Source: a virus. Taken from it: a DNA stretch of 64,000 bases. Position numbers and translations under genes: made by a program. The stretch lies in IMG/VR virus record IMGVR_UViG_3300028392_000034, positions 32,001 to 96,000 of that record; one strand, written 5' to 3'. This document shows, in pieces, positions 18,641 to 40,918 of the stretch; within the stretch, counting starts at the first letter, position 1, and the number at the start of each line of letters is the position of its first letter. The notes below the pieces were generated by a model. That model did not search any database, was not told the origin of the DNA, and was given only the letters and a program-made list of their open reading frames with translations.

Positions 18641-18973
18641 ATGAAACTAATGATTGCTACCCAGATCCAAGAGAACTATGGAGCCCACGATTGGGACGGT
18701 GAGGGTGAGTGCCCTCAATATTGGAAGTTCAAGGGCGGCAACGATTATTCGTATGCCTTGGGCAATTATAGTCGCAACCAAGAAGCTCTGGCCGAGTTGG
18801 TCACAGCCCTGTCAGAACAGATCAACGAAGACGGCCCTTACTACCGAGAGTATGTGATTGGCTGGTCAGTTGAGGCTGATGACTACCTTACTGAGTTTGA
18901 ACAAAGTCAGTTGGAGTATGATGGTCGTATTGTTTTCCCTACCAAACAACTCACCTTAAAGGAAATTGCATAA
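18641..18973 (+). CDS. Early hypothetical protein (ENYGAHDWDG...WKFKGG)
   Basis: Follows the promoter repeat. Confidence 0.7.
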   Translation: MKLMIATQIQENYGAHDWDGEGECPQYWKFKGGNDYSYALGNYSRNQEALAELVTALSEQINEDGPYYREYVIGWSVEADDYLTEFEQSQLEYDGRIVFPTKQLTLKEIA

Positions 18974-19200
18974 TGGCAAGCAAATACGTCGAAGGTTTGG
19001 CAGTAGAAATTGCCTGGATGACTAACGAATCACTTGGCCAATTGGCCCGAGAATTGGTAGCACGGCATAGCGAACGTGCTGACTACTTGGACATGATGAT
19101 CCGGGCCGAGTTCCAAGAAAAGTTAATGGCCTACAACGAGCGCCAGTCTCGCAAACAGCAAGTGGTACAGGCCATTGCAAAAGATTTGGTTGGAATATAA
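18973..19200 (+). CDS. Hypothetical protein
   Basis: TAATG coupling and RBS. Confidence 0.6.
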   Translation: MASKYVEGLAVEIAWMTNESLGQLARELVARHSERADYLDMMIRAEFQEKLMAYNERQSRKQQVVQAIAKDLVGI

Positions 19201-27679: not shown

Positions 27680-28879
27680 ATGAGCCTAGCTATAGAGCAT
27701 TGCAGTTTCTGTGACAAGCACAAGGACCGTGTTGGTAAATTAATTGTCAGTCACACTGTGGCCATATGTAATGAATGTGTTGATCTTTGTGGCGGCCTAC
27801 TTAAAGATAGTAAAACCACTGCACAACCAATTTCAGACGCACCCACAGTCATTGATCCTAAGGACATACGAGATTATCTTGACCAGCATGTGGTCGGTCA
27901 AGACCAAGCCAAAATTATACTCGGTGTAGCCATTGCCAACCACTACAAACGTATCAGTCGGTCAGATTCAACCATTGCCAAATCCAACATACTCATGATT
28001 GGTCCTACTGGCACAGGAAAAACTCTTATGGCTCGAACTGTTGCTCAGTATCTCAATGTTCCATTTGTCATTGCTGATGCTACCTGTCTAACCGAAGCCG
28101 GTTACGTTGGAGATGATGTAGAAAGTATGATTGCTCGTTTATACACTGCTGCAGATGGTGATGTAGAACGATGCCAACAGGGTATTGTGTTCTTAGATGA
28201 GATAGACAAAATTGCCCGTAAAAGCGAAAGTGCCACAGTAAGCCGAGATGTATCAGGAGAAGGTGTCCAACAAGCCCTGCTTAAATTGGTTGAAGGCACC
28301 AAGTGTAGGATATCGGCACATGGTACTAAAAAAACTAGTAACACAGAAATGGTTGAAATTGATACTACAAATATTTTATTTGTTGCCAGCGGTGCATTTG
28401 TGGGATTAGATCGTGTTATACAAACTCGTGTGCAAGGAACTGCTATGGGATTTGGTGCAACTATTAATTCAAAAAATCTTCCAAGCACTGAGCCGGCTAC
28501 ACCAGATGACTTGGTCAAGTATGGAATGATTCCTGAATTTGTTGGCAGATTTAACAGTTATGTAAATTTACACGATTTGACCAAAGCGCAGTTGGTCAAC
28601 ATATTAACTGAAGTAAAAGGCAATTTTGTAGAACAATATAAATGGTTGTTTAATCAAGACAATGTAGAATTAGAATTTGATAGTGAAAGTTTAGATATAA
28701 TTGCTGAACGCACATTAAAAACTCGAACTGGTGCCAGAGGCCTACACAGTGAATTAGAGCGAGTTTTATTACCTCATATGTTTGATTTACCTAGATATTG
28801 TAAGCAGTCTATCCTGCAGGTCACTATTAATAAGACCCAGGTAAATACTCCAATGACATTAATACAGGAAAATTCGTGA
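27680..28879 (+). CDS. clpX: ATP-dependent Clp protease ATPase ClpX
   Basis: CSFC...CNEC zinc finger, [45 protein letters not shown] loop, TGARGL. Confidence 0.95.
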
Positions 28880-29097
28880 AAGAATACAAAAATTCAGTTC
28901 GTGTAGTCGATGGCAATGTAGAAAAAGCCTTGAGAAAATTCAAAAAGCGAATACAAGAATCCGGATTACTCGACGATCTTCGAGCCAGAGAATTCTACGA
29001 AAAACCCACAACCGAACGCAAACGCAAAAAAGGTGCGGCTCAAGCCCGTTTGCGTAAAAAATTACGCGAACAAGCACTGCCAAAAAAACTCTACTGA
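28876..29097 (+). CDS. rpsU: 30S ribosomal protein bS21
   Basis: [11 protein letters not shown]...[15 protein letters not shown]. Confidence 0.92.
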
Positions 29098-29098
29098 T

Positions 29099-29323
29099 GT
29101 GTTTATAGAATTTGATTTGCGACAGACACACAATTATCATTACGATTTAAATCTTATTAAACTGGACATTGCAGAATGGGCAAATCGTTACGGTATTCCT
29201 TACACACAAAAAACAATAAAATATACGCATAGATTGGCCTTTGATCAAGACCGTTTCTATACTGTGTTTGCTACTACCTGGAATAGTGAATTCGACTATC
29301 GACTTATTGACAGGAAGTGGTAA
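29099..29323 (+). CDS. Hypothetical protein (small F-x-F-D...F...W family)
   Basis: GTG start right after the rpsU stop. Confidence 0.5.
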   Translation: MFIEFDLRQTHNYHYDLNLIKLDIAEWANRYGIPYTQKTIKYTHRLAFDQDRFYTVFATTWNSEFDYRLIDRKW

Positions 29324-29343
29324 ATGTGTTATAAATATATTAT

Positions 29344-29394
29344 GTAGATGCCGATGGTCGGGTCTACTGTATATGTCACTTGCTTAATAAGGAG
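29344..29394 (+). promoter_or_regulatory. Structured 5' leader motif of hsp20 (copy A)
   Basis: GTAGA-TG-CCGA-TGG-TCGG-G-TCTAC...CTTGCTTAATAAGGAG; covaries with the copy at 40587. Confidence 0.65.
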
Positions 29395-29400
29395 AAAACA

Positions 29401-29847
29401 ATGACAAAAATCACAACTCTGGATCTCAATCCATTCTATCGCAATTCAATTGGTGTTGACCGATTATTTGATCGTATGATGCATCAAATTGATACTGCAG
29501 CTTCATCAACAACTAACTACCCACCTTACAATATTGTAAAAACAGGCGAGAGCACCTACGAAATTCAAGTGGCTGTTGCTGGCTTTACACAAGGTGAAGT
29601 CTCAGTTAATGTAAACGATGGACAATTGGTCATTACTGGTGAAAAGGAAAAGACCGATCTGCCTGAAGGATATGCGTATGAGTATCAAGGCATCAGTGCC
29701 CGACGTTTCATTCGCACATTTACATTGGCTGATTATGTAGAAGTAACTGATGCTGTCAGCAAGGACGGTATTCTTACTGTTAGCCTAGAGCGTCAAATTC
29801 CTGAAGCGATGAAGCCTAAAACTATTGCTATTACTTACAAAAAGTAA
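29401..29847 (+). CDS. Small heat shock protein Hsp20 (IbpA-like)
   Basis: NYPPYNI, VAVAGF, GISARRFIRTFTL, DGILTV. Confidence 0.93.
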   Translation: MTKITTLDLNPFYRNSIGVDRLFDRMMHQIDTAASSTTNYPPYNIVKTGESTYEIQVAVAGFTQGEVSVNVNDGQLVITGEKEKTDLPEGYAYEYQGISARRFIRTFTLADYVEVTDAVSKDGILTVSLERQIPEAMKPKTIAITYKK

Positions 29848-29910
29848 TATAATATAGTAAATACAGTGGAGAGCACGGTGTTCTCCACTGTTACTACTAA
29901 AGGATCTGAG

Positions 29911-30219
29911 ATGTCACATATTGGAACAATAACAAAAACACAAGTTAATGTAGGACTCACAGAACCACCTATGTTTAAACTTATCTATCTCAATGATAAT
30001 GCCACGCCAATGGAATTTGTAATTGAAACACTAATTGACTCATTTAATTACAATACAGAAACTGCTGAAAAGATCACTATAGATATCCACGAAGCCGGAT
30101 CAGCTGTGGTTGCAGTATTACCATATGAAATAGCCGAACAAAAAGGTATTGAAGTAACAGTTCAGGCTCGTAACAATAACTATCCGTTACAAATTAAATT
30201 AGAGCCCGAGACAGTTTAA
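29911..30219 (+). CDS. clpS: Clp protease adaptor ClpS
   Basis: FKLIYLNDNATPMEFV...IHEAGSAVV...YEIAEQK...YPL. Confidence 0.9.
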   Translation: MSHIGTITKTQVNVGLTEPPMFKLIYLNDNATPMEFVIETLIDSFNYNTETAEKITIDIHEAGSAVVAVLPYEIAEQKGIEVTVQARNNNYPLQIKLEPETV

Positions 30220-31007
30220 ACGTCAATTTCTATGCGTCGGGGATAGAACACAGATCGACTCCATTGGGTATTGCCTCGCCCTTTGGGATTGCTTAGATAT
30301 TGTATTCCACCTAGTTGTTGATCTACGGGTTGATGATAGTGCCCAAAACACCATGTTTTAATTTTATTTTCAGTGTCCCCGTTGATGGCCCTGGCAATGT
30401 GTGTGTTGCCCATACCATTAAATCTCCAAGTATCTATTAGATCTAAATCATGCGCGATTATCCACGGTGCTGGAACAGTATGGCTAGCTAACACTATTGC
30501 TTTTACCTCACTGTGTTTTTGTAGTTTCTCTACACTCTTGATCAAGTAGGCTGCGTCATGGTATGCTATACCGATTATACTAGTAGCAGCCGAATTACTA
30601 ATATGAAAATGCTCTTGAACGTGCATTACGCTTTGATCCACGTCCATTACAGGATCAAAATCATAGGTCCACCATCCATTAGTTCCTAATATAGCCACAC
30701 CGTTGACAATGACCACATTGTCTTGAAGATACACTACATTTTTAATTTGACTAACCCGTTGATATAAGTCACGGTAGCTTTCGCTTAGATCTTCGTAGTG
30801 GTTTTTGTGTTCTTCGTTGCCGTCGATATAAAATACTCCACCTGGATAACATTTTCCAAGATGTGTCAGCGTGTTGATCAAAACGTCTCTGTCTTGGGCA
30901 ACATCGCCTGCTACTACGCAGTAAGGCGCGGTGGCTTGACCGGTCCAATCAAAGTCGGGCCAAGTTTCTACGTGTAAATCGGAGATCAAATCAAATGCAA
31001 ATTTCAT
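30216..31007 (-). CDS. Calcineurin-like metallophosphoesterase
   Basis: SDLH, AGD, GNEEH, HTVP, FGHYH, NPKG. Confidence 0.8.
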   Translation of the reverse strand: MKFAFDLISDLHVETWPDFDWTGQATAPYCVVAGDVAQDRDVLINTLTHLGKCYPGGVFYIDGNEEHKNHYEDLSESYRDLYQRVSQIKNVVYLQDNVVIVNGVAILGTNGWWTYDFDPVMDVDQSVMHVQEHFHISNSAATSIIGIAYHDAAYLIKSVEKLQKHSEVKAIVLASHTVPAPWIIAHDLDLIDTWRFNGMGNTHIARAINGDTENKIKTWCFGHYHQPVDQQLGGIQYLSNPKGRGNTQWSRSVFYPRRIEIDV

Positions 31008-31053
31008 AACGTATTTAATTCGATAAATACCCATATAATAATAAGGAGCTGAT

Positions 31054-31608
31054 ATGTCAACTATTCAAGATCCAAAACCACTATCACGGTCTGAACGTGA
31101 AGCACAAATCAAAGACAAAGCCGGTTGGGTTATTGTTGTTTTAGCTGCACTGTTGGCCATTAACACATACCTGGGTAATGGCAACAGCGGAAAAGTATTA
31201 AACAATACCATTGATGCCAACAACACCTGGGCGTTTTATCAGGCAAAATCGATCAAAGTTACCCTGGCAGAAATGGCTCTAGATGATGCTGTGGTTCGTA
31301 AAGATGTAGCCAAGGTAGCTGTGCTCAGTAAAAAAATTGCCAGATATGAATCAGACCCTGCAACAGGCGAAGGTAAGAAAGAATTAATGGCCAAAGCCCG
31401 GTCTCTAGAAGCAGATCGTGCAGTGGCCAAACAACGTAGTCCTTGGTATACGTTTGCTGGATCACTGTTTCAAATTGCTATTGTGCTATTATCAGCTAGT
31501 ATATTAGCAGTCAACACGAGATTGTATACTGCCAGCTTGTATGTAGGCAGCGGCGCGATGATCTTGATGAGTCAAGCAATTTGGCTCTGGATTCCTACTA
31601 TACTTTAA
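31054..31608 (+). CDS. DUF4337-like membrane protein
   Basis: LAALLAI, WAFYQAKSIK, FQIAIVLLS; AAGGAG RBS. Confidence 0.65.
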   Translation: MSTIQDPKPLSRSEREAQIKDKAGWVIVVLAALLAINTYLGNGNSGKVLNNTIDANNTWAFYQAKSIKVTLAEMALDDAVVRKDVAKVAVLSKKIARYESDPATGEGKKELMAKARSLEADRAVAKQRSPWYTFAGSLFQIAIVLLSASILAVNTRLYTASLYVGSGAMILMSQAIWLWIPTIL

Positions 31609-31674
31609 ACCCAGCTTAATGTAACCTAAGAATCCTGTAAATACTTCAAGCTCTGACCAACAAGAGCATGGAGT

Positions 31675-31932
31675 ATGATGAAAAAATATAGGGCTATCCA
31701 CAGTGCTGTAATCTTGGTATTATTGTCGATACTATGCGGTTCTACGATGGTGTCAAGTTCGCCCATGTACGGTGGCGATCGTCCCAGTGTAGCACAAGAA
31801 CTACCTGCCAGAGAACGAGAAGTCAGACTCAATCACGGAGTTGCTGAATGTGTTAGGACCGCTTGGATCGGTGACGTCAACAATAGAAAACTGATCTGTG
31901 TTGAGTATCGCTATCGGAAAGAGGTTAAGTAA
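31675..31932 (+). CDS. Hypothetical secreted or membrane protein
   Basis: Hydrophobic N-terminus. Confidence 0.45.
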   Translation: MMKKYRAIHSAVILVLLSILCGSTMVSSSPMYGGDRPSVAQELPAREREVRLNHGVAECVRTAWIGDVNNRKLICVEYRYRKEVK

Positions 31933-32708
31933 TGGATCCATTAACCCTCTTTGCTCTGGCCAATGGCGCTGTGTCTGCAGTCAAGGCCGGATGTAAACTC
32001 TACAAAGATATCAAAGGTGCTGCCGGTGAGGTCAAGGACGTTCTCAAGGATCTTGACGAACAGTTTGCTAAACTACACCCTCCAGAAAAACCCGCAACTG
32101 TAGCACAGAAAAATGCCTACATACAAGAAAAAAATCGCGTCATTGAATTAAACAAACGCGATGGCGAGACCACTGGAATTTACACTGAAATTGGTGAACA
32201 TCTTGGTGCATACTATGACAACTATCACAAATGCATAGCCATCTTTGAAGAAGAAGAGCGGCGCAGTAAAAATGAAATATACACAGGTGATGCTAGCCTG
32301 GGCAAACGTGCCTTGCAACGTGTGCTGATGAAAAAGCAACTGGAACAGATGGAGGTTGAGTTGCGTGAAATTATGGTTTACCAAAGCCCACCGGAGCTGG
32401 GTGCATTGCACACCGAAGTGGAAGAAATGATGGGAGTCATGGGCCGGCAACAAAAAAGTCTCATCGTACAGCAGATGAAACAACATGAAATTGCAGAAAG
32501 AAAAAGAAAACAAAAATCACACCAATTGTATATGAATATATTAATTGGTATTGGTGCATTGGTAGTTTGTTGTGGTGTTGGGTTAACATTGTCGTATGTT
32601 GTAGAAGATAGAATTAAAAAGTATCCACAATACGGCACAGATTGGATACCAAAAAATCAGTCACAACGACAACGAGAAGCACAAAAACAAATCTATGTAG
32701 GAAGATAG
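31932..32708 (+). CDS. Hypothetical coiled-coil protein with a C-terminal TM helix
   Basis: MDPLTLFALANGAV N-terminus; GAGG RBS. Confidence 0.6.
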   Translation: MDPLTLFALANGAVSAVKAGCKLYKDIKGAAGEVKDVLKDLDEQFAKLHPPEKPATVAQKNAYIQEKNRVIELNKRDGETTGIYTEIGEHLGAYYDNYHKCIAIFEEEERRSKNEIYTGDASLGKRALQRVLMKKQLEQMEVELREIMVYQSPPELGALHTEVEEMMGVMGRQQKSLIVQQMKQHEIAERKRKQKSHQLYMNILIGIGALVVCCGVGLTLSYVVEDRIKKYPQYGTDWIPKNQSQRQREAQKQIYVGR

Positions 32709-32722
32709 AGAGTCATAATAAT

Positions 32723-34015
32723 TTATTGTGTTTTAGTTTTTAATAAATCTAAAATATGATCTAAATCTGCTCTAGTTGGCAAACATGTTTCTTGGTTGGC
32801 TGAAACAAAATCAATTATTTCAGGAGTAGATGCCAACTTGTTCCAATAATCACTTTTGTAATTTTTTGGATCATCCAGCTGATCAAATGCTGAAGTTAAA
32901 TTTGTTTTTAATTCATTAATCACTTGATTAAAAAAATCTTGGCTAAAAAATCTCTGACGATTATATTCGGCAATGGCCTGTGCTTCTGCCATATTTCGTT
33001 CACGCTGATGTGGCAACCAAGTTGAAATATATTTCATAAGCTCGGCAATCTGTATCAAACGTTCGGCAGGATCTTCTATTTGATCATAGCTTTCGTCCCA
33101 TACATCGCTAAATGTTTGAAATCCATAACTTTTTAAATATTCTAAACTACCGTATGTGCCGGCCAATATAAACGGTTGTCCAACCGCAACGGGTCGCAAA
33201 CTTTTTTCAGTCAGGTGTAACCGATCGTCATCAAATAAGGTTTCAAGAACTACTTCAATATCTGTTGAATTATAATCATTTGTGTCAAAGTCTGCGCTGT
33301 AACTGCTGTGAGCGTTGCTAATTGGAAAGAAATTTTCCAACACAGTATGTGGGCGCCACGTTGGATTTTTAAACTGGTGCGAGTCGTAGTGTATACCCAG
33401 TTCGGGTTCAATGGGATTGATGCTGGTTTTACAGTGCTCTTGTAGATTTAGAGATATCAATAGTTCAGCAAATCGTAAACGATATTCTCTAGTATTGCTC
33501 CAGGCACGATTGTAAATCAAAAATGTTTTGTCAGATTTTTTTGTCTGAGCGACATGTTCGGCATATCTAAACCAGTCTCGAGCTATTACCGCATGACTCC
33601 AGTAGTATACCGGTATCAATTCATTGCTGGCTTCATACTTTTTGAGATTGCTGGACCGCTGTTCACTGTGCAATAATATATTTTTTTCAAAAATGCTTTG
33701 TCGTCGATAATTCAAATTTGTAGTCGGGATATAGAAACCAGTAGACCTCATCAATGACGCAAATACGTTGTTTTTTTGATTGGGAAGATTTTTACTGTAA
33801 AAATCGTAATCCAGTGGTTCTTGATCATTACACCATATAGCAGGATAAGTGGTTTTGCATAGCCATTCTGTCAGTCCATAGTCTGTCAGGTTATTTAAAT
33901 CATTAATATTTTTTGAACCGTGCGGATAAAATCGATAAATTATTATGCGATCATTGTAAATCTCTTGGGCAACATTTTCAATATAATGATATAGCCGGTC
34001 TAACGGAATGCTCAT
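32723..34015 (-). CDS. Hypothetical protein, possibly a GT-B glycosyltransferase
   Basis: VLET...HLTEKSLRP...QPF...GFQTF...DESYD resembles the TEK motif of GT10-type transferases. Start chosen 7 nt after a TAAATA box. Confidence 0.45.
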   Translation of the reverse strand: MSIPLDRLYHYIENVAQEIYNDRIIIYRFYPHGSKNINDLNNLTDYGLTEWLCKTTYPAIWCNDQEPLDYDFYSKNLPNQKNNVFASLMRSTGFYIPTTNLNYRRQSIFEKNILLHSEQRSSNLKKYEASNELIPVYYWSHAVIARDWFRYAEHVAQTKKSDKTFLIYNRAWSNTREYRLRFAELLISLNLQEHCKTSINPIEPELGIHYDSHQFKNPTWRPHTVLENFFPISNAHSSYSADFDTNDYNSTDIEVVLETLFDDDRLHLTEKSLRPVAVGQPFILAGTYGSLEYLKSYGFQTFSDVWDESYDQIEDPAERLIQIAELMKYISTWLPHQRERNMAEAQAIAEYNRQRFFSQDFFNQVINELKTNLTSAFDQLDDPKNYKSDYWNKLASTPEIIDFVSANQETCLPTRADLDHILDLLKTKTQ

Positions 34016-34058
34016 AGGCATATATTTACACAGGAAACAGCACATTACAATTAAAATT

Positions 34059-34580
34059 ATGACACAGACTCTACACAAGTATCAATTATATCCATTTTGG
34101 GACAATGAATACACAGCATTAACGTATATTCAAGAAGCGTTCAATGATCACGATCTTGTTGCCAAGTGGCGTCAACAAGGATACATGCCCAAGTTTACCG
34201 GAGACATGTGTGATATGCGTAGCCCACAACCTGGCTGGAATCAAAGATTTGTAGAGATGTTTGAAGGACAAGGATGGAGGGATGTTGGAACCAGTTACTA
34301 TAGAATGACGACCGGCACCATATTACCAACACACAGCGATCTGTATTTAAAATATATCGATCTGTTCAACCTTAAAGGTCGCGAACACACCATACGTCGT
34401 GCCATAGTATTTTTAGAAGATTGGCAACCTGGTCACTACGCTGAATATCAAGATCAGGCCTATGTAAATTGGAAAGCCGGAAGTGTAGTTGAATGGAAGT
34501 ATGATACACCACACATGGCAGCCAACTTAGGATTAACGCCACGATACACACTACAAATTACAGGACATGTTGATGATTGA
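34059..34580 (+). CDS. Putative 2OG-Fe(II)/cupin oxygenase (Asp/Asn hydroxylase-like)
   Basis: LPTHSD...PHMAAN.G...RYTLQITG (HxD...H...R). Confidence 0.6.
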   Translation: MTQTLHKYQLYPFWDNEYTALTYIQEAFNDHDLVAKWRQQGYMPKFTGDMCDMRSPQPGWNQRFVEMFEGQGWRDVGTSYYRMTTGTILPTHSDLYLKYIDLFNLKGREHTIRRAIVFLEDWQPGHYAEYQDQAYVNWKAGSVVEWKYDTPHMAANLGLTPRYTLQITGHVDD

Positions 34581-35496
34581 TAGTCGCAATGAATGGGATC
34601 CGATAGAAGCCATTATAGTAGGTACAGCCACTGGGGCCAATTGGCCCATGACTGATCCGGTGTTTGCTGAGGAAGCTCGTAACAGTTTATGGACTGAATC
34701 TCCTGCCCCTAGCGGAGCAGTACCCCAATTCATCATAGACGAAGCCAATAGAGAACTTGACACATTATCAGAGACCCTGGCCCGTAACGGTGCCACGGTA
34801 TATAGACCCCGACCCATGGATTTTGTTGCGATGAACGGAATGTATAACTATTGTCCCAGGGACCGTTTATTGGTGGCCGGTGACACTGTGGTTGACTGCA
34901 ACATGATGTATCCATGCCGCAATCAAGAAATAGCCAACTATCCACGCTTGTTAGGTGATGCCCGACAGGTATTGACCATGCCAAGAGATTCGGGCATGAC
35001 GCTAGATGCAGCCAACATTTGTCGACTAGGCGATACTTGGCTGTTCTTGGAATCAGCTTCGGGTAATCGAGCCGCATACGAATGGTTGTGTGAACATTTT
35101 CCCAGCATCACGATCGAGTTGGTAAACTTTTATGCCGGAGTGCATATTGACAGCACAATTACACCGCTACGCGAAGGACTGGTTATGTTGAACGCCAGTC
35201 GTGTAACCTCGGACAACTGTCCCAAAGCATTTCAAGATTGGGAAAAAATTTGGGTAACTGAAGATCAAATTGTAGCCCAGGATTTTTATCAGTATCCATA
35301 CGCATCAAAATGGATTGCTATGAATATGTTGGCCGTGAATCCAGAAACAGTTATTATAGATGCGGCCCAAACTGAGCTAATTACTATACTAAAGAAACAC
35401 GGCATTGACAGTATTCCTTTAACCTTGAGTCATAGTAGAACACTAGGTGGTGGATTCCATTGTGTTACTTTAGATACACGGAGACATCATGCTTGA
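34567..35496 (+). CDS. Amidinotransferase (glycine / inosamine-phosphate amidinotransferase family)
   Basis: NEWDP, YCPRD, LDAAN, HIDST, MNML, GGGFHCVT. Confidence 0.85.
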   Translation: MLMIDSRNEWDPIEAIIVGTATGANWPMTDPVFAEEARNSLWTESPAPSGAVPQFIIDEANRELDTLSETLARNGATVYRPRPMDFVAMNGMYNYCPRDRLLVAGDTVVDCNMMYPCRNQEIANYPRLLGDARQVLTMPRDSGMTLDAANICRLGDTWLFLESASGNRAAYEWLCEHFPSITIELVNFYAGVHIDSTITPLREGLVMLNASRVTSDNCPKAFQDWEKIWVTEDQIVAQDFYQYPYASKWIAMNMLAVNPETVIIDAAQTELITILKKHGIDSIPLTLSHSRTLGGGFHCVTLDTRRHHA

Positions 35497-36769
35497 TACA
35501 GCGGCCATTGAGCAACTAGTACGACAACAGATTACAGAACAAGTAAGTGAACAAATTTCAGTTACATTAGGGTCAGATGCCTGGCTGGCTAGTTTTGAAC
35601 AACAAATAATTGAATATGTGCAGGCCCGTGTTATGGCAAAATTTGCCAACGCTGAATACCTGCCCGAAATAACCGATACAGTTAAATCAAGTGTCAGTGA
35701 ATTATTTAAACGCGGTGCGGTTCCTGGCATTGACCAATATGTAGATACTGTAACTATCCGTAGAACTATTGATACGGCTGTAGAACAATTGGTTGACAGT
35801 TCTATTGAGGTATTGGGCAAGGATCCTGTATGGCTAGCCAAAATTGAACAGCAAATTAATCAAGCAGTGGTAGATCGTGTAATTCGACAGTTTGGTCAAA
35901 TCGATCTCAACCCAATTATCAAAGAACGAGTTGATGAACACATGACTCAGTTCCAGCAAGATATTTTAAACAATTTTGCCAGCACAGGAATCAGTGATCA
36001 AGCCGGTACCTGTCAGTTGATCATAAATGATGATTCTGTTGTAGTTGGAAATCAATTGACCACACGTGATTTAACTGTGTCTAATGCGGCAGTGATACAA
36101 GATCTTGTGGTCAAAGGATCTGTCAACATTGACAATCCAAGCTGGGAGTTATTGGCCACAGGTATTAGTGAAAAAACAATCAATCGACTTTCTGATGAAT
36201 GGAAAACAGTATTAACAGCTCAAGTGGCAGAACAAATACGATCCAATGGTGTTGATTTTGATTCTGTAAAAATCAACGGAGAAACATTGGTCAGTGGTAA
36301 TACCTTGGCAAAAAGTATTACTGATACCAATATACGATCTGTGGGTGTATTAAAGACTTTGACTGTTGACGGAGAGTCTATATTTAATAATCAGACTCTG
36401 GCAGTATTAAACAAACGCATAGGTGTAAACACTATAAGTCCAGAAATGGCTCTAAGTGTGTGGGACGAAGAAGTCAGCATAGTAATTGGAAAAAACAAAG
36501 CCAACGAAGCCTACATTGGAACCAATAGAGCTCAAGGTGTTGCCATTGGTGTTAATCGACAACCGCAAATTGAGATCTCAGCAGATGGCCTAACACGAAT
36601 ACGACAATTACAGGTTGGGCTACATCGTGTCAGTCACGCCACACAGGTTCCTGGATGGTCAGGTACCAAAGGTGATATAGTATTCAATTCAGATCCTAAC
36701 GATACTCCTGTGTTTGCTTGGGTTTGTATAGGCGGCCATCGTTGGAAAACTCTTAAAAGCGCCGAATGA
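35489..36769 (+). CDS. Hypothetical protein (helical N-terminus, tail-fibre-like C-terminus)
   Basis: RIGVNT...P, GDIVFNS...WVC motifs seen in virion fibres. Confidence 0.5.
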   Translation: MLDTAAIEQLVRQQITEQVSEQISVTLGSDAWLASFEQQIIEYVQARVMAKFANAEYLPEITDTVKSSVSELFKRGAVPGIDQYVDTVTIRRTIDTAVEQLVDSSIEVLGKDPVWLAKIEQQINQAVVDRVIRQFGQIDLNPIIKERVDEHMTQFQQDILNNFASTGISDQAGTCQLIINDDSVVVGNQLTTRDLTVSNAAVIQDLVVKGSVNIDNPSWELLATGISEKTINRLSDEWKTVLTAQVAEQIRSNGVDFDSVKINGETLVSGNTLAKSITDTNIRSVGVLKTLTVDGESIFNNQTLAVLNKRIGVNTISPEMALSVWDEEVSIVIGKNKANEAYIGTNRAQGVAIGVNRQPQIEISADGLTRIRQLQVGLHRVSHATQVPGWSGTKGDIVFNSDPNDTPVFAWVCIGGHRWKTLKSAE

Positions 36770-37323
36770 ACATCAGTTGGGTAATAGCTGACAGTGCAGA
36801 GTTGGATCCTACTCAGAATATTGATGCACTTAAAAAATTAGGACCAATTTGGGGATCGTGGCGAACCTGGCGTGCCTATCAAACAGACAATGTTGTATGC
36901 CATAATCAAAACAAAGCAGAAGAGTTGGTCAAACGCAAGTTTCATGAACGTTGCAATTTTTATATTCCTGATTCGGTAAATGTATCATTAGGAAGACCCG
37001 CTGGAGTTCGGTTATACGCTGGGGATTTTGTTCACGATGTCATTAGGCAAGAAGAACTTGTGGCACTACATCTAGCCGCAACCACCAGTGATATTGTATT
37101 GTTACTAGGATGGGATCTTGCCAAACTAAAACCAAATTCTGATCGACTGGAATCAAATCAAGCACAGCATCACCGTAACCTATTTCACCAAGCGGTAAAA
37201 GATTATGGACAAACACAATGGGTAGCGGTGGATCATCTGGAGCCATTGGCTCCGTCATTGCAGGTTTTGGAAAATTTAGTCCTCGACACAATGGATGCGG
37301 TTTTGGCCCTAGCTCCTGATTGA
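36766..37323 (+). CDS. Hypothetical protein, weakly like Rossmann-type sugar-transferase domains
   Basis: ALHLAA...IVLLLGWD pattern. Confidence 0.4.
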   Translation: MNISWVIADSAELDPTQNIDALKKLGPIWGSWRTWRAYQTDNVVCHNQNKAEELVKRKFHERCNFYIPDSVNVSLGRPAGVRLYAGDFVHDVIRQEELVALHLAATTSDIVLLLGWDLAKLKPNSDRLESNQAQHHRNLFHQAVKDYGQTQWVAVDHLEPLAPSLQVLENLVLDTMDAVLALAPD

Positions 37324-37348
37324 CAACTAAGTTGTGATGCTGTATAAT
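37320..37348 (+). promoter_or_regulatory. Consensus sigma70 promoter of uvsE, probably giving a leaderless mRNA
   Basis: TTGACA-N17-TATAAT; ATG at 37355. Confidence 0.75.
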
Positions 37349-37354
37349 AGCAGT

Positions 37355-38416
37355 ATGACTACACTAAAGCGTATTGGTTTCTGTTGCAAATGGCTCAATG
37401 ATCCGTCCGAATGTGGCGGCATGAAAGTCAATGCAGTGGATCGGGACCTTAACGGGCGTTCAACTACCATGCGTTGGTTGCGTGAGCACCCACTTGAAGC
37501 CGAACAGCGCCAGTGGGACATTATGAATCACAATACTGCAGCCGCTGTACGGTTGATTGAACGTGTGGCCACACTGCCTGCTGAACGCAGAATGGTACGC
37601 TTGGGCAGTGAAATGCTACAAGGCTACACTGAAAAAGATTGGATCACTTGGTGGCAACGCAAGGAAATACAAGACCACTGTGCAAAGATATTTGCACCCA
37701 TTGGTGAAACTGCCCGCAGACTTGACGTTAGACTCAGCTTTCACCCTGGACAGTTTTGTGTATTGGCCAGTGAGAACGAAGGCATCGTAAATAGAAGTAT
37801 ACAGGAGTTTGAATATCATGCAGATATGGTCAGATGGATGGGATATGGTCGGTCGTTTCAAGACTTTAAAATCAATGTTCACATCTCAGGTAAAAGAGGT
37901 CCAGCCGGTATCAAAGACGCACTTAAACGACTCTCGCCTGAAGCAAGAAACTGCATCACAATCGAAAACGACGAAAACGCCTGGGGCATCGATTCAAGTC
38001 TCGAACTCGCAAACGATTGTGCCCTTGTGCTTGATATACACCATCACTGGATCCGTACAGGAGAATACATTCAAGCCACCGATAGTAGACTTGCTCGCAT
38101 AATTGATTCGTGGCGCGGAGTAAGACCAGCCCTGCACTATTCAGTAAGTAGAGAAGATGTGCTGGTAGATCATCCGGCGGATACTGTGCCTGATCATGCA
38201 CTACTATTAGAATCAGGCTACAAAAAACAAAAAATGCGAGCACACTCGGACTTTTATTGGAATCAACCAGTGACAGACTGGGCCTTGAGCTTTTGGGATC
38301 AGTTTGATATACAGTGCGAAAGCAAAGGCAAGAACTTGGCCAGTGCTCAGGTTTACAACAGGGCAGTAGAACTGGGACTAGCGGATGATACAGTTAAAAC
38401 TTTGGCCACCGCCTGA
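37355..38416 (+). CDS. uvsE: UV damage endonuclease UvsE/UvdE
   Basis: RIGFCC, RLSFHPGQF, NVH, IENDE, LDIHHH, HYS, AHSD, ESKGK. Confidence 0.9.
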   Translation: MTTLKRIGFCCKWLNDPSECGGMKVNAVDRDLNGRSTTMRWLREHPLEAEQRQWDIMNHNTAAAVRLIERVATLPAERRMVRLGSEMLQGYTEKDWITWWQRKEIQDHCAKIFAPIGETARRLDVRLSFHPGQFCVLASENEGIVNRSIQEFEYHADMVRWMGYGRSFQDFKINVHISGKRGPAGIKDALKRLSPEARNCITIENDENAWGIDSSLELANDCALVLDIHHHWIRTGEYIQATDSRLARIIDSWRGVRPALHYSVSREDVLVDHPADTVPDHALLLESGYKKQKMRAHSDFYWNQPVTDWALSFWDQFDIQCESKGKNLASAQVYNRAVELGLADDTVKTLATA

Positions 38417-38618
38417 TTGGCACGAGTGTGTAGTCAGTTGGGATTGGTTATTGGAAGATAATAGTCCACATATAAATGAAATATACAGTTGGTGCGATCA
38501 ACACGGTAGTCCCAGCAGATATCATGTGCATGGGTGGAAGTCAACTAAAGGATTTGCATTTCAATTTGAAGATCCCAAGGACGCTGTTTTGTTTAGTTTA
38601 ACATGGACACATCGGTAG
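38385..38618 (+). CDS. Small hypothetical protein (F-x-F-x-D-x-x-D-A-x-x-F-x-L-x-W family)
   Basis: FAFQFEDPKDAVLFSLTW. Confidence 0.55.
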   Translation: MIQLKLWPPPDWHECVVSWDWLLEDNSPHINEIYSWCDQHGSPSRYHVHGWKSTKGFAFQFEDPKDAVLFSLTWTHR

Positions 38619-38779
38619 AATACTACGGTGTTGAGTTGCACCGAGTCTCTACTCGGGTATTGGCATGGATAGTTGACACTTATGGCCCGCTGGGTGCAAG
38701 ACGTTGGTTTGTAAAAAATAAAACAATATATTTTTACAACAAAGCCGACTATGAAATGTTTCTATGGAGATGGATGTAA
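38603..38779 (+). CDS. Small hypothetical protein of the same family (58 aa, not in the ORF track)
   Basis: ...IYFYNKADYEMFLWRWM; TAATG coupling to the next gene. Confidence 0.55.
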   Translation: MDTSVEYYGVELHRVSTRVLAWIVDTYGPLGARRWFVKNKTIYFYNKADYEMFLWRWM

Positions 38780-39078
38780 TGAATTTTATTTTTGTTGCTG
38801 CCGCTAATGTTTGGAAGTATATCAAAACGGATTGGCATTCAAATCCAATTAGATTTTGTGCCGAAGCATTTGCCTGGGCCTGCAGTGTAATATCTGCTGT
38901 GATATTTGCGGTCACTATTCCTGATATTCCGGTAGTGCCACTTTACACTATCTTTATTTCCGGGTGTTGTGCCAGTTGCTGGGCTTGCTGGACTAGACGC
39001 AGCTTTGGCCTAATGGCCAACTCTGCATTTTTGGTTATTATCGACAGTATCGGTCTTGTACGATACTGGTTACATTAA
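38779..39078 (+). CDS. Small membrane protein with three TM segments
   Basis: Hydrophobic segments; TAATG start. Confidence 0.6.
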   Translation: MNFIFVAAANVWKYIKTDWHSNPIRFCAEAFAWACSVISAVIFAVTIPDIPVVPLYTIFISGCCASCWACWTRRSFGLMANSAFLVIIDSIGLVRYWLH

Positions 39079-39251
39079 GCCTTGGGAGTTCGTGGCTTAC
39101 GTGGCGCGGCTTTTTTAACAGCAGGCGTTTTGGCTACTTTTTTAACCGCTGGGGTAGTTTCTGCTACCGGAGCAGGTGTTTCGACCTTGTAAGGTGCTGG
39201 GCTTGCTTCAGTTGGTTTTGTACCAAAAATTTTCTTTAAAAACGATAGCAT
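39075..39251 (-). CDS. Small Lys/Ala/Pro-rich basic protein (58 aa, not in the ORF track)
   Basis: AAGGAGA RBS and CATAAATA box; MLSFLKKIFG...VKKAAPRKPRTPKA. Confidence 0.7.
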   Translation of the reverse strand: MLSFLKKIFGTKPTEASPAPYKVETPAPVAETTPAVKKVAKTPAVKKAAPRKPRTPKA

Positions 39252-39413
39252 AATAAATCTCCTTGTCGATTATTTATGGGCATATTATTCAATTACAAAT
39301 CTATTAGATTTCAATGAATTCTCTCAGTAGAAACACTGACTATTATTGCACCACAGCATAAATAAATTTGTAGAAGCCAAGAGCCTCTACTAAAATTTAA
39401 GGAAAAACACAAA

Positions 39414-39584
39414 ATGTCTTTAGAAAGAATATTAGAACGTCTAGCAGAAATGTTTCCTAAACAGGCTTATCAGAGCCGTTTAGAACAGTATATCAACAGC
39501 AAAAATCCAACCAATGCAGCAGAAGTGGACTATTGGCAACGGCAGTATGAAACCGAAGCACAACATTGGAGTCGCGGTGTATGA
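39414..39584 (+). CDS. Small protein, DUF3563-like (56 aa, not in the ORF track)
   Basis: AAGGA RBS; ...SRLEQYINSKNPTNAAEVDYWQRQY. Confidence 0.6.
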   Translation: MSLERILERLAEMFPKQAYQSRLEQYINSKNPTNAAEVDYWQRQYETEAQHWSRGV

Positions 39585-39688
39585 TGAAAATTATTTGGAA
39601 AATTTTAGAATCATGGGGTGAGGCTAGAGCAGCAGCATATCTAACCCGTAACGGCCGTATTGCAGAAGCCAAAGCAATATACAAATGA
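39581..39688 (+). CDS. Small hypothetical protein (35 aa)
   Basis: ATGA coupling; WKILESWGEARAAAYLTRNG. Confidence 0.45.
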   Translation: MMKIIWKILESWGEARAAAYLTRNGRIAEAKAIYK

Positions 39689-39780
39689 ACACAATTGAAG
39701 CATTTGGAGAGAAATACGGCAACAAGATTGCTGCCTGGACTATTGCGGCAATGATTATATATTTGGTTATTGCACAATAG
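39685..39780 (+). CDS. Small membrane peptide (31 aa)
   Basis: ATGA coupling; hydrophobic C-terminal half. Confidence 0.35.
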   Translation: MNTIEAFGEKYGNKIAAWTIAAMIIYLVIAQ

Positions 39781-39798
39781 ACTTTTGATAAGTAATTG

Positions 39799-40503
39799 AT
39801 GCTGACAATTATTGCAACCCTGGTGATGACACACATCACCATAGCCTGTGTTACCCTGTATTTGCACCGTAGTCAGGCGCATCGATCTGTGGAATTTAAC
39901 CCTGCAATAGCACATTTTATGCGCTTTTGGCTTTGGCTGACCACAGGCATGGTTACCAAACAATGGGTAGCTGTGCATCGCAAGCATCATAGGTTCACAG
40001 AACAAGAGGGAGACCCACACAGCCCACATGTGTATGGGATCGGGCGTGTGTTCTTTAAAGGAGCAGTGTTATATCATGCGGCAAGCAAAGATACGGTCAT
40101 GGTTGACACATACGGTCGTGGCACTCCTGCTGATTGGATGGAGCTTCACGTATACCAGCCTCACAGTAGACTTGGCATTGGCCTTCTCCTTGTGCTCAAT
40201 ACAGTGATATTTGGCTGGTGGGGTTTACTGGTTTGGGGTATACAAATGATTTGGATACCTTTTTGGGCCGCTGGAGTTGTAAATGGCGTAGGACATTGGA
40301 TAGGATATAGAAATGGACATACTAAAGATCATAGTCGTAATATTAGTCCTTGGGGCATTGTCATTGGTGGCGAAGAGCTTCATAACAACCACCACTTGGA
40401 CCCAGCGAGTGCCCGGCTCAGCAAGAATTGGTTTGAATTTGATATAGGTTGGTTTTACATTTGCCTATTAAAATGGTTAGGTTTAGCCAAATTACGAGCA
40501 TAA
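39799..40503 (+). CDS. Membrane delta-9-type fatty acid desaturase
   Basis: His boxes HRSQAH, HRKHH, HNNHH; GDPHSP; FEFDIGW. Confidence 0.92.
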   Translation: MLTIIATLVMTHITIACVTLYLHRSQAHRSVEFNPAIAHFMRFWLWLTTGMVTKQWVAVHRKHHRFTEQEGDPHSPHVYGIGRVFFKGAVLYHAASKDTVMVDTYGRGTPADWMELHVYQPHSRLGIGLLLVLNTVIFGWWGLLVWGIQMIWIPFWAAGVVNGVGHWIGYRNGHTKDHSRNISPWGIVIGGEELHNNHHLDPASARLSKNWFEFDIGWFYICLLKWLGLAKLRA

Positions 40504-40586
40504 AATTAGTGACCACTCACTAGTAGAAACCACTAGGAAATTGCGGCAGTGCCATGTATAATAGATAAATACAGTAGAGAAAAGAA

Positions 40587-40635
40587 GTTAGTGCCGACGG
40601 TCGGGCTAACACAAACCCTCGCTTAATTTAAGGAG
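40587..40635 (+). promoter_or_regulatory. Structured 5' leader motif (copy B)
   Basis: GTTAG-TG-CCGA-CGG-TCGG-G-CTAAC...CTCGCTTAATTTAAGGAG. Confidence 0.65.
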
Positions 40636-40642
40636 ATTTACC

Positions 40643-40867
40643 ATGTTTAATTTCAAATCCGTAGTAGACCAAGTAGCAACAGCAACTAAGACACCTTTGA
40701 TGTATGTTGAAGACAAAGCAATTCGCGCAAACCTAGAAACTCTAGTAGATGCTTATGTAGACTTTACTAAAACTGCATACGACACAGGTTTAGAGCTTTC
40801 TAAGCAAGTAGTTGAAGCTACTAAGAGTATTGACTACTCTAAGTATTTTGCTAAAGCAGGCAAGTAA
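40643..40867 (+). CDS. Small amphipathic helical protein, possibly phasin-like
   Basis: Strong RBS, own terminator, Ala/Thr/Lys helical composition. Confidence 0.45.
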   Translation: MFNFKSVVDQVATATKTPLMYVEDKAIRANLETLVDAYVDFTKTAYDTGLELSKQVVEATKSIDYSKYFAKAGK

Positions 40868-40894: not shown

Positions 40895-40918
40895 AAGCCC
40901 AGGTAACTGGGCTTTTTT
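40895..40918 (+). terminator. Rho-independent terminator
   Basis: AAGCCCAG-GTAA-CTGGGCTTTTTT. Confidence 0.85.

Follow-up and report, generated by a model that had tools for sequence, protein, structure and literature searches.

Two genes of a viral genome share a leader

The leaders of a small heat-shock protein (sHSP) gene and of an unrelated small gene in a viral genome had been predicted from the sequence to share a covarying hairpin and a GCTTAAT-AAGGAG motif, which raised the question of what kind of element joins two such genes. The window, i.e., the whole stretch of DNA that was analysed, comprises 64,000 nt (positions 32,001 to 96,000) of the 148,970-base IMG/VR virus record IMGVR_UViG_3300028392_000034. 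Both hairpins were read in the sequence at the positions and with the letters given by the original prediction (Table 1), as were a TAAATA hexamer upstream of each (29332 to 29337 and 40566 to 40571) and CTYGCTTAAT..AAGGAG downstream of each (29379 to 29394 and 40618 to 40635), followed by ATG at 29401 and 40643. The 14-nt hairpin core occurs at exactly two sites in the window, where 0.36 were expected even with two mismatches permitted, and at exactly two sites across the entire record. Hairpin I of copy 1 consists of a 5-bp outer stem, a U.G pair, a bulged G, a 4-bp inner stem (CCGA/UCGG) and a 3-nt loop; copy 2 has the same layout, U.G pair and inner stem, with GUUAG/CUAAC as its outer stem and the bulged G at 40593.

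Copy 1 is the 5' leader of an HSP20-family gene, reaching its ATG, and is located in a clpX-rpsU-hsp20-clpS island. The hsp20 product matched Pfam HSP20 (2e-17) and PHROG 432 (7e-38) and showed 38% identity to Pseudomonas IbpA. The gene behind copy 2 does not encode an sHSP, and the position in an sHSP 5' untranslated region that marks the ROSE class is therefore seen for copy 1 only.

Table 1. Coordinates of the two leaders and of neighbouring features in the window
Feature	Position	Strand	Basis
Promoter-like region of hsp20	29307..29337	+	sequence read; promoter and leader conserved in relatives
Copy 1 hairpin I	29344..29367	+	RNAfold, ROSE_3 alignment, covariation
Copy 1 hairpin I, 5' half	GUAGA 29344-29348, U 29349, bulged G 29350, CCGA 29351-29354
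Copy 1 hairpin I, loop and 3' half	loop 29355-29357, UCGG 29358-29361, G 29362, UCUAC 29363-29367
Copy 1 hairpin II	29374..29406	+	folds, lower-stem covariation, SD/anti-SD pairs in 107 elements
hsp20, 148 aa, alpha-crystallin small heat-shock protein, IbpA-like	29401..29847	+	Pfam, PHROG, identity
Hairpin before orf39414	39370..39390	+	diverged copy of the AGTAGAAACCAYGAG motif, which follows TAAATA boxes in relatives
TAAATA box (40566-40571) and short single-stranded 5' extension before copy 2	40566..40586	+	putative start site
Copy 2 hairpin I	40587..40610	+	RNAfold; R1 54.3 bits
Copy 2 hairpin II	40613..40648	+	RNAfold fold, ROSE_2 alignment, lower-stem columns
Gene for 74-aa three-helix protein	40643..40867	+	189 clusters, all hypothetical; AlphaFold2 pLDDT 91
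Terminator-like hairpin after the 74-aa gene	40895-40914

TAAATA by itself was not enriched (53 found versus 53.5 expected), while TAAATA followed by GTAG within 1 to 9 nt was found 6 times versus 1.28 expected, with 0/100 shuffles reaching this count. The box before copy 2 is followed by CAGTAG, like other TAAATA..GTAG sites. The "looser" hairpin pointed out before orf39414 does exist according to RNAfold, but it is not a copy of the element: as a third copy it was rejected, with no match to R1 (the covariance model of the element, used to score leaders) and no UYGCU motif. At its position, 56 relatives of orf39414 carry a different conserved motif, AGTAGAAACCAYGAG.

Covariation supports a structure in the plus-strand RNA

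The compensatory change in the outer stem seen between the two copies held in relatives, i.e., in 28 distinct leaders and 86 further viral copies. Among the 28 leaders, 5 of the 10 pairs of hairpin I had changed on both sides (42 cells), which none of 500 shuffles equalled, and slid controls were far lower. In the 86 viral copies, the first free outer pair was always paired, with four pair types (GC-rich chance matches, 3/9), and the outer pairs together were paired in 86, 81 and 74 copies, with up to five pair types. The hairpin-I core (U.G pair, bulged G, CC/GG stem) was unchanged in 28/28 leaders, while the outer stem varied freely; in L048 and L049, a G-C pair is flipped to C-G (CCCA/UGGG versus CCGA/UCGG). 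The lower stem of hairpin II was 90% paired, with 3 of 5 pairs double-changed, and its 5' strand tracked the second codon (UGUCA, AGUCA or AACAU versus ACA, ACU or UUU). The position flanking the pairing between the Shine-Dalgarno (SD) sequence and the anti-SD was paired in 105/107 elements, changing from C-G to U-A where GGAG becomes GGAA. Furthermore, G.U pairs were present at two hairpin-I positions, in 9 and 10 sequences, and such frequent G.U pairs fit only RNA of the + strand and not a DNA palindrome.

These data bear directly on the idea that a repressor binds the inverted repeat as a DNA operator just past the promoter, as with CIRCE/HrcA or HAIR/HspR. The repeat does lie directly after a -10-like box before a heat-shock gene and is common to both copies. 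However, the conserved bulged G makes its two arms unequal, its G.U pairs would turn into C-A mismatches in the opposite strand, and an outer stem that varies freely while its pairing is kept is the opposite of a sequence-specific DNA site; moreover, the repeat makes up only half of the unit that aligns to an RNA family (ROSE_3, see below). A DNA operator is disfavoured, and we consider it extremely improbable. Together, the covariation and the G.U pairs support the cis-acting + strand RNA structure, present in the hsp20 leader as well as in that of an unrelated gene, that had originally been proposed.

Hairpin II pairs the Shine-Dalgarno sequence

Both parts of the shared leader belong to one short ROSE-like element, with the covarying hairpin as its hairpin I and the GCTTAAT-AAGGAG motif as its hairpin II. 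Two hairpins were predicted by RNAfold in both copies, and the covariation supports them. In copy 1, the lower stem of hairpin II pairs UGUCA (29374 to 29378) with UGACA (29402 to 29406), covering the U and G of AUG and codon 2, and the upper stem sets C-UUGCU-U (29379 to 29385) against the SD AAGGAG (29389 to 29394). In copy 2, CUCGCUUA (40618 to 40625) faces UAAGGAG (40629 to 40635), and a weak lower stem may form between AAAC (40613 to 40616) and GUUU (40645 to 40648), this stem being 4 bp only and absent from the RNAfold prediction. Both copies contain the U(U/C)GCU motif, as UUGCU at 29380 to 29384 (bulged G 29382) and as UCGCU at 40619 to 40623 (bulged G 40621). It was canonical in 107 of 116 related elements, its second base being U in 91 and C in 16, and 9/116 departed from it with UUCGU, in which the bulged G is displaced by one position. 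In the RNAfold minimum-energy structure of copy 1, the anti-SD was paired slightly off the ROSE register.

In the ROSE-like design described by Krajewski et al. (2013), the sensing part is hairpin II, where UYGCU pairs with the SD around a bulged G, and hairpin I of the Pseudomonas leaders remains unmelted and is believed to assist folding or to stabilise the mRNA (PMC3669281). The original prediction had taken hairpin I for the sensor and GCTTAAT-AAGGAG for an accessory; by this design, the roles are reversed. In-silico nearest-neighbour melting between 10 and 50°C raised SD accessibility only shallowly in copy 1 and almost not at all in copy 2, and a Pseudomonas leader of the experimentally validated type was equally flat in the same computation, so this approach does not discriminate.

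The element resembles bacterial ROSE-like thermometers

Comparison with Rfam, suggested together with the original prediction, revealed ROSE_3 (RF02523), the type of the Pseudomonas ibpA leaders, as a full-length but sub-threshold relative. Positions 1 to 69 of 69 aligned to copy 1 with 30.1 bits (E 0.0029; gathering cut-off 43), and the agreeing parts were the hairpin-I core GAUGCCGA..UCGGGUC, identical to the model consensus, and ACUyGCU..AGGAG. ROSE_3 matched 13/20 related phage leaders with 22 to 37 bits, never reaching the threshold, and was the only Rfam family to recur. Copy 2 had no ROSE_3 match; ROSE_2 (RF01832) aligned to it weakly over its full length with 18.9 bits (E 0.048 in a 111-nt search), below the gathering cut-off of 65. 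Since all phage copies fall below the Rfam gathering cut-offs, none would be annotated as ROSE. As a positive control, loci of Pseudomonas parafulva and P. guariconensis that carry the hairpin-I pattern and precede ibpA scored 78.6 and 74.6 bits with ROSE_3.

The features that define the Pseudomonas elements, i.e., two hairpins, a G+C-rich hairpin I of seven conserved pairs, one of which is either G-C or C-G, and UYGCU opposite the SD (PMC3669281), have their counterparts in the phage element: two hairpins, a G+C-rich hairpin I with a G-C/C-G pair, and UYGCU opposite the SD. Like ROSE_3, it has a two-hairpin architecture of about 60 nt, a hairpin-I core GAUG-CCGA..UCGG-GUC with a U.G pair and a bulged G, the same G-C/C-G flip, and a position upstream of an IbpA-type sHSP gene. 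Unlike ROSE_3, it is carried by phages and is also attached to non-sHSP genes, its hairpin II is AU-rich, without the flanking G-C clamps that are emphasised in Pseudomonas, its AUG is paired rather than unpaired, and its promoter is sigma-70-like plus TATAAATA in appearance rather than dependent on sigma-32. With classical ROSE (ROSE1, Bradyrhizobium hspA) and E. coli ibpA (ROSE_2), it shares UYGCU/SD pairing with a bulged G in the 3'-proximal hairpin, and with classical ROSE also a start codon within the hairpin; these elements differ in having three to four hairpins in 70 to 120 nt, with other upstream hairpins, and in belonging to genes on bacterial chromosomes that sigma-32 or RpoH controls. 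The phage lambda cIII RNA thermometer is likewise a phage-encoded, temperature-dependent mRNA fold that controls ribosome access, but it uses two alternative folds, is translated at lower and not higher temperature, and neither contains a ROSE motif nor is related to the element in sequence. Cyanobacterial hsp17/hspA thermometers and fourU elements are also short hairpins of the 5' untranslated region masking the SD of small heat-shock genes (PMC3074152, PMC4152365). They have neither UYGCU with a bulged G nor the conserved hairpin I. Attachment to non-sHSP genes has a precedent in bacterial ROSE-like elements before ABC transporter genes, in reports whose abstracts mention no phage copies (PMC11342760, PMC12857270).

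On sequence grounds, we regard the element as a divergent, unannotated relative of the bacterial ROSE-like thermometer, carried by a large freshwater phage, and each copy is probably a short two-hairpin RNA thermometer serving as the 5' untranslated leader of its transcript. A thermosensor was one of the two options in the original prediction. The analysis shows the sequence signature, the structure with its covariation and conservation, and the sub-threshold homology to ROSE_3; start site, melting and physiological role are inferred. Transcription would begin at or just before hairpin I, which, being G+C-rich with an invariant core, would be expected to remain folded, shield the 5' end and help the weak hairpin II to fold. 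At low temperature, imperfect pairing of U(U/C)GCU and its bulged G with the SD, and of the lower stem with the start codon and codon 2, would keep the 30S subunit from binding; on warming, the AU-rich imperfect helix would open and translation would begin. Opening of this SD-masking hairpin would in turn make production of Hsp20 and the 74-aa protein temperature-dependent, post-transcriptionally and without a dedicated regulator protein.

The element is kept mostly at chaperone genes

In IMG/VR, the element was kept in all 21 close hsp20 homologues (21/22 hsp20 loci) and in 12/12 true homologues of the 74-aa gene (R1, 54 to 87 bits). Scanning viral contigs for the pattern yielded at least 86 distinct copies; nearly all of these stand in front of hsp20, and one stands in front of a phage dnaK (L230). 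In relatives, the element was also seen upstream of groES-groEL.

The promoter-like region of hsp20 is made up of TTGACA (29307 to 29312), a 17-nt spacer and TATAAATA (29330 to 29337), from which transcription would be expected to start at about 29342 to 29344, at the foot of hairpin I. Contigs spanning hsp20 from inside hairpin I onward are present in lake metatranscriptomes assembled in four studies; because these are contigs only, the support is weak. One RNA-library contig starts at 29297, upstream of the proposed promoter, which counts against the proposed start.

A hairpin at the predicted 5' end could also mean that a genuine structure is insensitive to temperature, with hairpin I acting as a 5' stabiliser against RNase E and pyrophosphohydrolase and hairpin II setting translation to a low constant rate, or to one whose timing depends on a phage factor, for example the phage-encoded ribosomal protein bS21 of the neighbouring gene. 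Stabilisation of mRNA by 5' stem-loops is established. Krajewski et al. proposed such a role for hairpin I (PMC3669281), and both the shallow in-silico melting and the phage rpsU 300 nt upstream can be counted for it. However, the UYGCU with bulged G kept in 107/116 elements is a specific hallmark of thermosensing ROSE hairpins, the element occurs almost only at chaperone genes (hsp20, dnaK and the site upstream of groESL), and the homologous Pseudomonas leaders are proven thermometers (PMC3669281). We therefore judge a purely non-thermal role very unlikely.

The leader could also be bound by Hsp20

The 74-aa gene is not among the known heat-shock genes, which counts against the thermometer reading. 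Its product scored 14.8 bits with Phasin_2 of Pfam (E 0.034), under the gathering cut-off of 24.9, and a fold comparison gave no match; 4 of 27 relatives matched Phasin_2 (best E 4.7e-5). The phasin-like signal is thus weak, and the Atlas offers a lead only.

The leader may mainly or additionally be an operator for an sHSP, with phage Hsp20 or host IbpA putatively binding it and repressing translation until aggregated proteins titrate the chaperone and derepress it, so that hsp20 and the 74-aa gene would form an aggregation-sensing regulon. The invariance of the U.G/bulged-G/CC-GG core of hairpin I next to a free outer stem points to a constraint beyond the needs of a generic stabilising stem, and the core would be the candidate recognition site. 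The phage Hsp20 has NYPPYN and an invariant arginine in GISARRF, as do all five aligned proteins, and we take this tyrosine and arginine to correspond to Y34 and R93 of E. coli IbpA. The IbpA proteins of E. coli, Cedecea and Vibrio bind their own ROSE-type 5' untranslated regions and repress translation, which requires R93 and Y34; R93 is reportedly frequent among the IbpAs of alpha- and gamma-proteobacteria (PMC10474464). Because IbpA proteins bind their own ROSE leaders, we keep a protein-binding operator, which is compatible with thermosensing, as a minority hypothesis, although an unlikely one. Binding was shown for enterobacterial ROSE_2, whose consensus differs in its hairpin sequence, so the conserved phage core is not a known IbpA site, and the candidate arginine sits in a region of the alpha-crystallin domain that is conserved in general.

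The thermometer and such an operator could be combined if the hairpin-I core were the recognition site of phage Hsp20 and the leader defined a post-transcriptional regulon reading both temperature and the load of aggregated proteins, a proposal that we put forward as speculative and doubtful. If true, the regulon would comprise hsp20 and the gene for the 74-aa phasin-like protein in this phage, and dnaK and possibly groESL in relatives, and the phage could adjust its own set of chaperones to the folding load that virion production imposes.

Two hairpins form one leader upstream of hsp20 and of a small gene

The original prediction held that the leaders of hsp20 (copy 1) and of the gene for a 74-aa protein (copy 2) have in common a hairpin, here hairpin I, and a GCTTAAT-AAGGAG motif. 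Reading of the sequence confirmed both hairpins, in exactly the layout claimed, and CTYGCTTAAT..AAGGAG followed by ATG downstream of each. The 14-nt hairpin-I core occurs twice in the window, compared to 0.36 expected even with two mismatches, and twice in the entire record. While the sharing of hairpin and motif stood, their separateness did not: to judge from the sequence, they are two halves of one unit, in which the motif would form a second hairpin (hairpin II) that pairs a UYGCU anti-Shine-Dalgarno (anti-SD) sequence, with a bulged G, with the Shine-Dalgarno (SD) sequence. An intrinsic terminator or attenuator was rejected, as no U-tract follows hairpin I.

Coordinates of the leader elements and associated features (window positions unless a locus is named)
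Feature	Position	Strand	Details
HSP20-family protein gene	29401-29847	+	Pfam 2e-17
74-aa protein gene	40643-40867	+	no family
Copy 1, hairpin II upper stem	29379-29385 with 29389-29394		C-UUGCU-U, bulged G at 29382, against AAGGAG
Copy 2, hairpin II upper stem	40618-40625 with 40629-40635		CUCGCUUA, bulged G at 40621, against UAAGGAG (RNAfold)
Proteostasis and translation island	27680-30219		clpX (zinc finger and AAA_2 domains), rpsU (bS21), hsp20, clpS
Third leader copy	L052:1501-1600 and L050:1501-1600		relatives G001 and G005
hsp20 promoter	29307-29337		TTGACA-N17-TATAAATA, with TATAAATA at 29330-29337
Further TATAAATA sites	2267, 14870, 59502
Further TATAAATA site	48311	-
Third hairpin	39370-39390		before orf39414
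Copies related to AGTAGAAACCAYGAG	39326, 39369, 40522
AGTAGAAACCA(Y)GAG motif	39326-39340, 39369-39382, 40520-40536
TTGC-N4-6-GC(AA) box	39343-39356, 40546-40556
Possible SD-masking pairing	39396-39431		orf39414 leader

The leader is conserved among large freshwater phages

The source record (148,970 bases, IMG/VR), of which the window spans bases 32001-96000, is rated 43% complete, and since related records reach 317-357 kb, the window represents one piece of a very large phage. Sequencing runs containing the stretch, from many studies, were labelled as freshwater or lake-water metagenomes, and a megablast search with 29000-33000 found no match among 50,697 deposited phage genomes. Protein-based searches of IMG/VR, blind to the leader, yielded 22 loci for hsp20 and 14 for the small gene. 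The two-hairpin leader was present in 21 of the 22 hsp20 loci, the exception being the most distant (42% identity), which keeps a ROSE-type anti-SD, and in 12/12 true homologues of the 74-aa gene. The covariance-model scan proposed originally was run with a model built from the phage leaders (R1), which matched 28/28 distinct leaders at 54-87 bits. R1 found no further copies in the record; a weak minus-strand match at 18923-19023 (15.7 bits, E 0.29) was rejected.

A third hairpin, proposed as a looser version of hairpin I, is real, but it was rejected as a member of the thermometer family: it has no R1 match and lacks the anti-SD motif. In 56 relatives of orf39414, AGTAGAAACCAYGAG stands at the corresponding place, directly 3' of a TAAATA box, and while TAAATA alone occurs at chance frequency, TAAATA-N1-9-GTAG is enriched. 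The shared GTAGA is therefore probably promoter or start-site context rather than part of a thermometer.

Several other motifs were seen in this region. The motif AGTAGAAACCA(Y)GAG, with short complementary arms, lies near TAAATA boxes here and in the 56 related loci, upstream or downstream of the box, and could be a signal for processing or one linked to promoters. In the promoters of orf39414 and the 74-aa gene, TAAATA is preceded at a distance of 10-20 nt by a TTGC-N4-6-GC(AA) box, which is often palindromic (TTGC-N3-4-GCAA) and is also found in small-gene loci (L025-L036); a regulator of phage or host origin may act there. RNAfold, applied to the orf39414 leader, paired UUUAAGGA in the SD region with UCUUUAGA, which lies in codons 2-4 (z-score -1.95); this could be a separate SD-masking structure.

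Covariation supports both hairpins and reveals a third helix

The compensatory change first read from the two copies was borne out in hairpin I, where 5/10 pairs changed on both sides across the 28 leaders. Double-change cells numbered 42, compared to 13.6 in shuffles (0/500 as high), and slid controls collapsed. G.U pairs at two positions place the structure in plus-strand RNA. A DNA operator at the inverted repeat was considered unlikely and discarded, given the asymmetry of the two arms and the high frequency of G.U pairs. The inner stem flips from G-C to C-G in two relatives, a change that Krajewski et al. noted in Pseudomonas (PMC3669281).

A pattern scan of viral contigs (fixed core plus TYGCT) returned at least 119 stretches. 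Among the 95 distinct matches listed, 86, all in AT-rich DNA, have an SD and ATG downstream, and their first three free outer pairs were formed in 86/86, 81/86, and 74/86, with at most five pair types. In the nine listed matches in G+C-rich DNA, outer pairs were formed in 3/9 and 2/9. In hairpin II, the position flanking the core was paired in 105/107 elements, with U-A in place of C-G where GGAA replaces GGAG; of the 107, 91 have U and 16 have C as the Y of UYGCU. Nine relatives (L004, L005, L011, L014, L016, and L019-L022) have UUCGU, and in this variant anti-SD, CUUCGUUU, the bulged G is displaced by one step toward the loop relative to UUGCU, a natural test of bulge position setting the switching temperature.

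The original prediction missed a third helix, the lower stem. It joins UGUCA to UGACA, made up of the UG of AUG and codon 2, in hsp20 leaders, and AACAU to AUGUU in leaders of the small gene. Its upstream strand tracks codon 2 (reading AGUCA where that codon is ACU); the columns of the stem were 90% paired, with double changes in 3/5 pairs, and pairing scored 4.80 with an element's own start region, compared to 4.38 ± 0.10 with regions that have a different second codon. Because the lower stem covers the U and G of AUG, the start codon is masked too. The first R1 alignment (A4) was out of structural register in the small-gene subfamily (5-bp inner stem) and at the hairpin II bulge, so its "not paired" cells understate pairing in the hairpin I and lower-stem counts; anchor-based parsing was used alongside it.

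The leader probably belongs with ROSE-type thermometers

Comparison of the whole window with Rfam gave no match at gathering thresholds. In E-value mode, ROSE_3 (RF02523), the family of Pseudomonas ibpA thermometers, appeared below its cut-off, aligning 29342-29406 over the full model length (30.1 bits, E 0.0029). The ROSE_3 consensus holds the same GAUG-CCGA...UCGG-GUC core in hairpin I, with a U.G pair and a bulged G, and pairs ACUyGCU with AGGAG in its second hairpin. It was the sole Rfam family to recur on related loci (13/20, at 22-37 bits, none reaching the cut-off of 43). Copy 2 aligned weakly with the E. coli-type ROSE_2 (18.9 bits, E 0.048 in a 111-nt search).

Bacterial contigs were scanned with the hairpin-I pattern, and among the matches listed most were chance occurrences in G+C-rich genomes. 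As a positive control, Pseudomonas loci found in this way, upstream of ibpA, scored 74.6 and 78.6 bits with ROSE_3. A Shinella (Rhizobiaceae) sHSP leader also has the core. The full elements among the matches listed were five Pseudomonas loci and one Shinella locus, and the host could not be inferred from these bacterial genome contigs. R1 recognized only Shinella (23 bits), missing the other bacterial relatives because the phage model is too AU-rich.

U(U/C)GCU facing the SD is a hallmark of ROSE-like thermometers, whose two-hairpin short form was defined and proven on Pseudomonas ibpA (PMC3669281). The start codon is masked here, as in classical ROSE elements, whereas it is not in the Pseudomonas elements. 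The kind of element is known. No report of phage-encoded ROSE elements was found in the literature, and as far as our searches show, four things are new: the occurrence in phages, the distribution over numerous uncultured phage lineages, the association with genes that do not encode sHSPs, and an AU-rich form whose AUG is masked.

If the leader works as the proven elements of Pseudomonas do, hairpin I would stay folded and help folding and stability, while hairpin II would open on heating and free the SD and AUG. It is unlikely that the leader is purely a stabilizer. Nearest-neighbor partition functions from 10 to 50°C were flat, even for the Pseudomonas-type control, which makes this computation uninformative. 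A reading of the leader as a binding site for an sHSP that represses translation deserves attention, since IbpA proteins, via R93 and Y34, bind the ROSE leaders of their own genes and repress them (PMC10474464). In addition, the hairpin-I core is more invariant than its structure alone would require. Phage Hsp20 keeps matching arginine (residue 101) and tyrosine motifs, which we take to be the equivalents of E. coli R93 and Y34. However, this core has no known tie to IbpA binding, and the enterobacterial leaders with shown binding carry another hairpin.

Promoter, transcription, and gene context

The thermometer-like leader of hsp20 is preceded by TTGACA-N17-TATAAATA, whose position makes a start at the foot of hairpin I likely; promoter and leader are both kept in relatives. 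A sigma-70-like -35 and spacer are here joined to TATAAATA, the consensus of T4-type late promoters, so dual early and late expression of hsp20 is possible. In lake metatranscriptome assemblies from four studies, contigs span hsp20 from within hairpin I onward, and one begins farther upstream, at 29297. Being assembled contigs, in which uncovered stretches carry no weight as evidence, they are compatible with transcription and do not map its start.

The hsp20 copy lies within a clpX-rpsU-hsp20-clpS island in which rpsU overlaps the end of clpX. Two relatives have a third leader copy, with its own TTGACA-N17-TATAAATA promoter, between rpsU and groES-groEL; the window has no groESL at this place. 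Downstream of the third copy are a conserved 8-codon ORF (MSKHIYVT/MSKQIYLT) and a second sigma-70-like promoter for groES, and the copy could be a duplication relic or a thermometer-controlled leader peptide. On L230, a 524,565-base IMG/VR contig, the leader precedes a phage DnaK/Hsp70 gene on the minus strand (protein start MSKVIGIDLGTTNS); ROSE-type control of dnaK is unusual.

The 74-aa protein had a confident three-helix structure model, with no fold match in the PDB by Foldseek and no match in Pfam or PHROGs. Its Phasin_2 score was sub-threshold (14.8 bits, cut-off 24.9), and an Atlas lead was likewise weak. The 189 clusters of its family derive exclusively from metagenomes and large phage contigs, with relatives unnamed apart from two evidently spurious source names. 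In another relative (L051:1264-1506, minus strand) the element precedes a distantly related 81-aa helical protein with the best, still weak, Phasin_2 signal.

Implications

RNA thermometers are viewed as belonging to bacteria, with lambda cIII as the textbook example from a phage. On sequence grounds, a whole clade of large freshwater phages appears to carry ROSE-type thermometers on its own chaperone genes, as do, by the pattern scan, many other uncultured phage lineages. Annotation pipelines miss the phage copies because all fall below Rfam thresholds. For a thermosensor this small, over 100 natural sequence variants are now at hand, among them one with a shifted bulge and AU-rich ones, perhaps tuned to cool lakes. 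The conserved 74-aa protein would be tied to the heat shock response, which gives it a testable context. Together, these results suggest that infecting phages directly sense temperature or stress on proteostasis.
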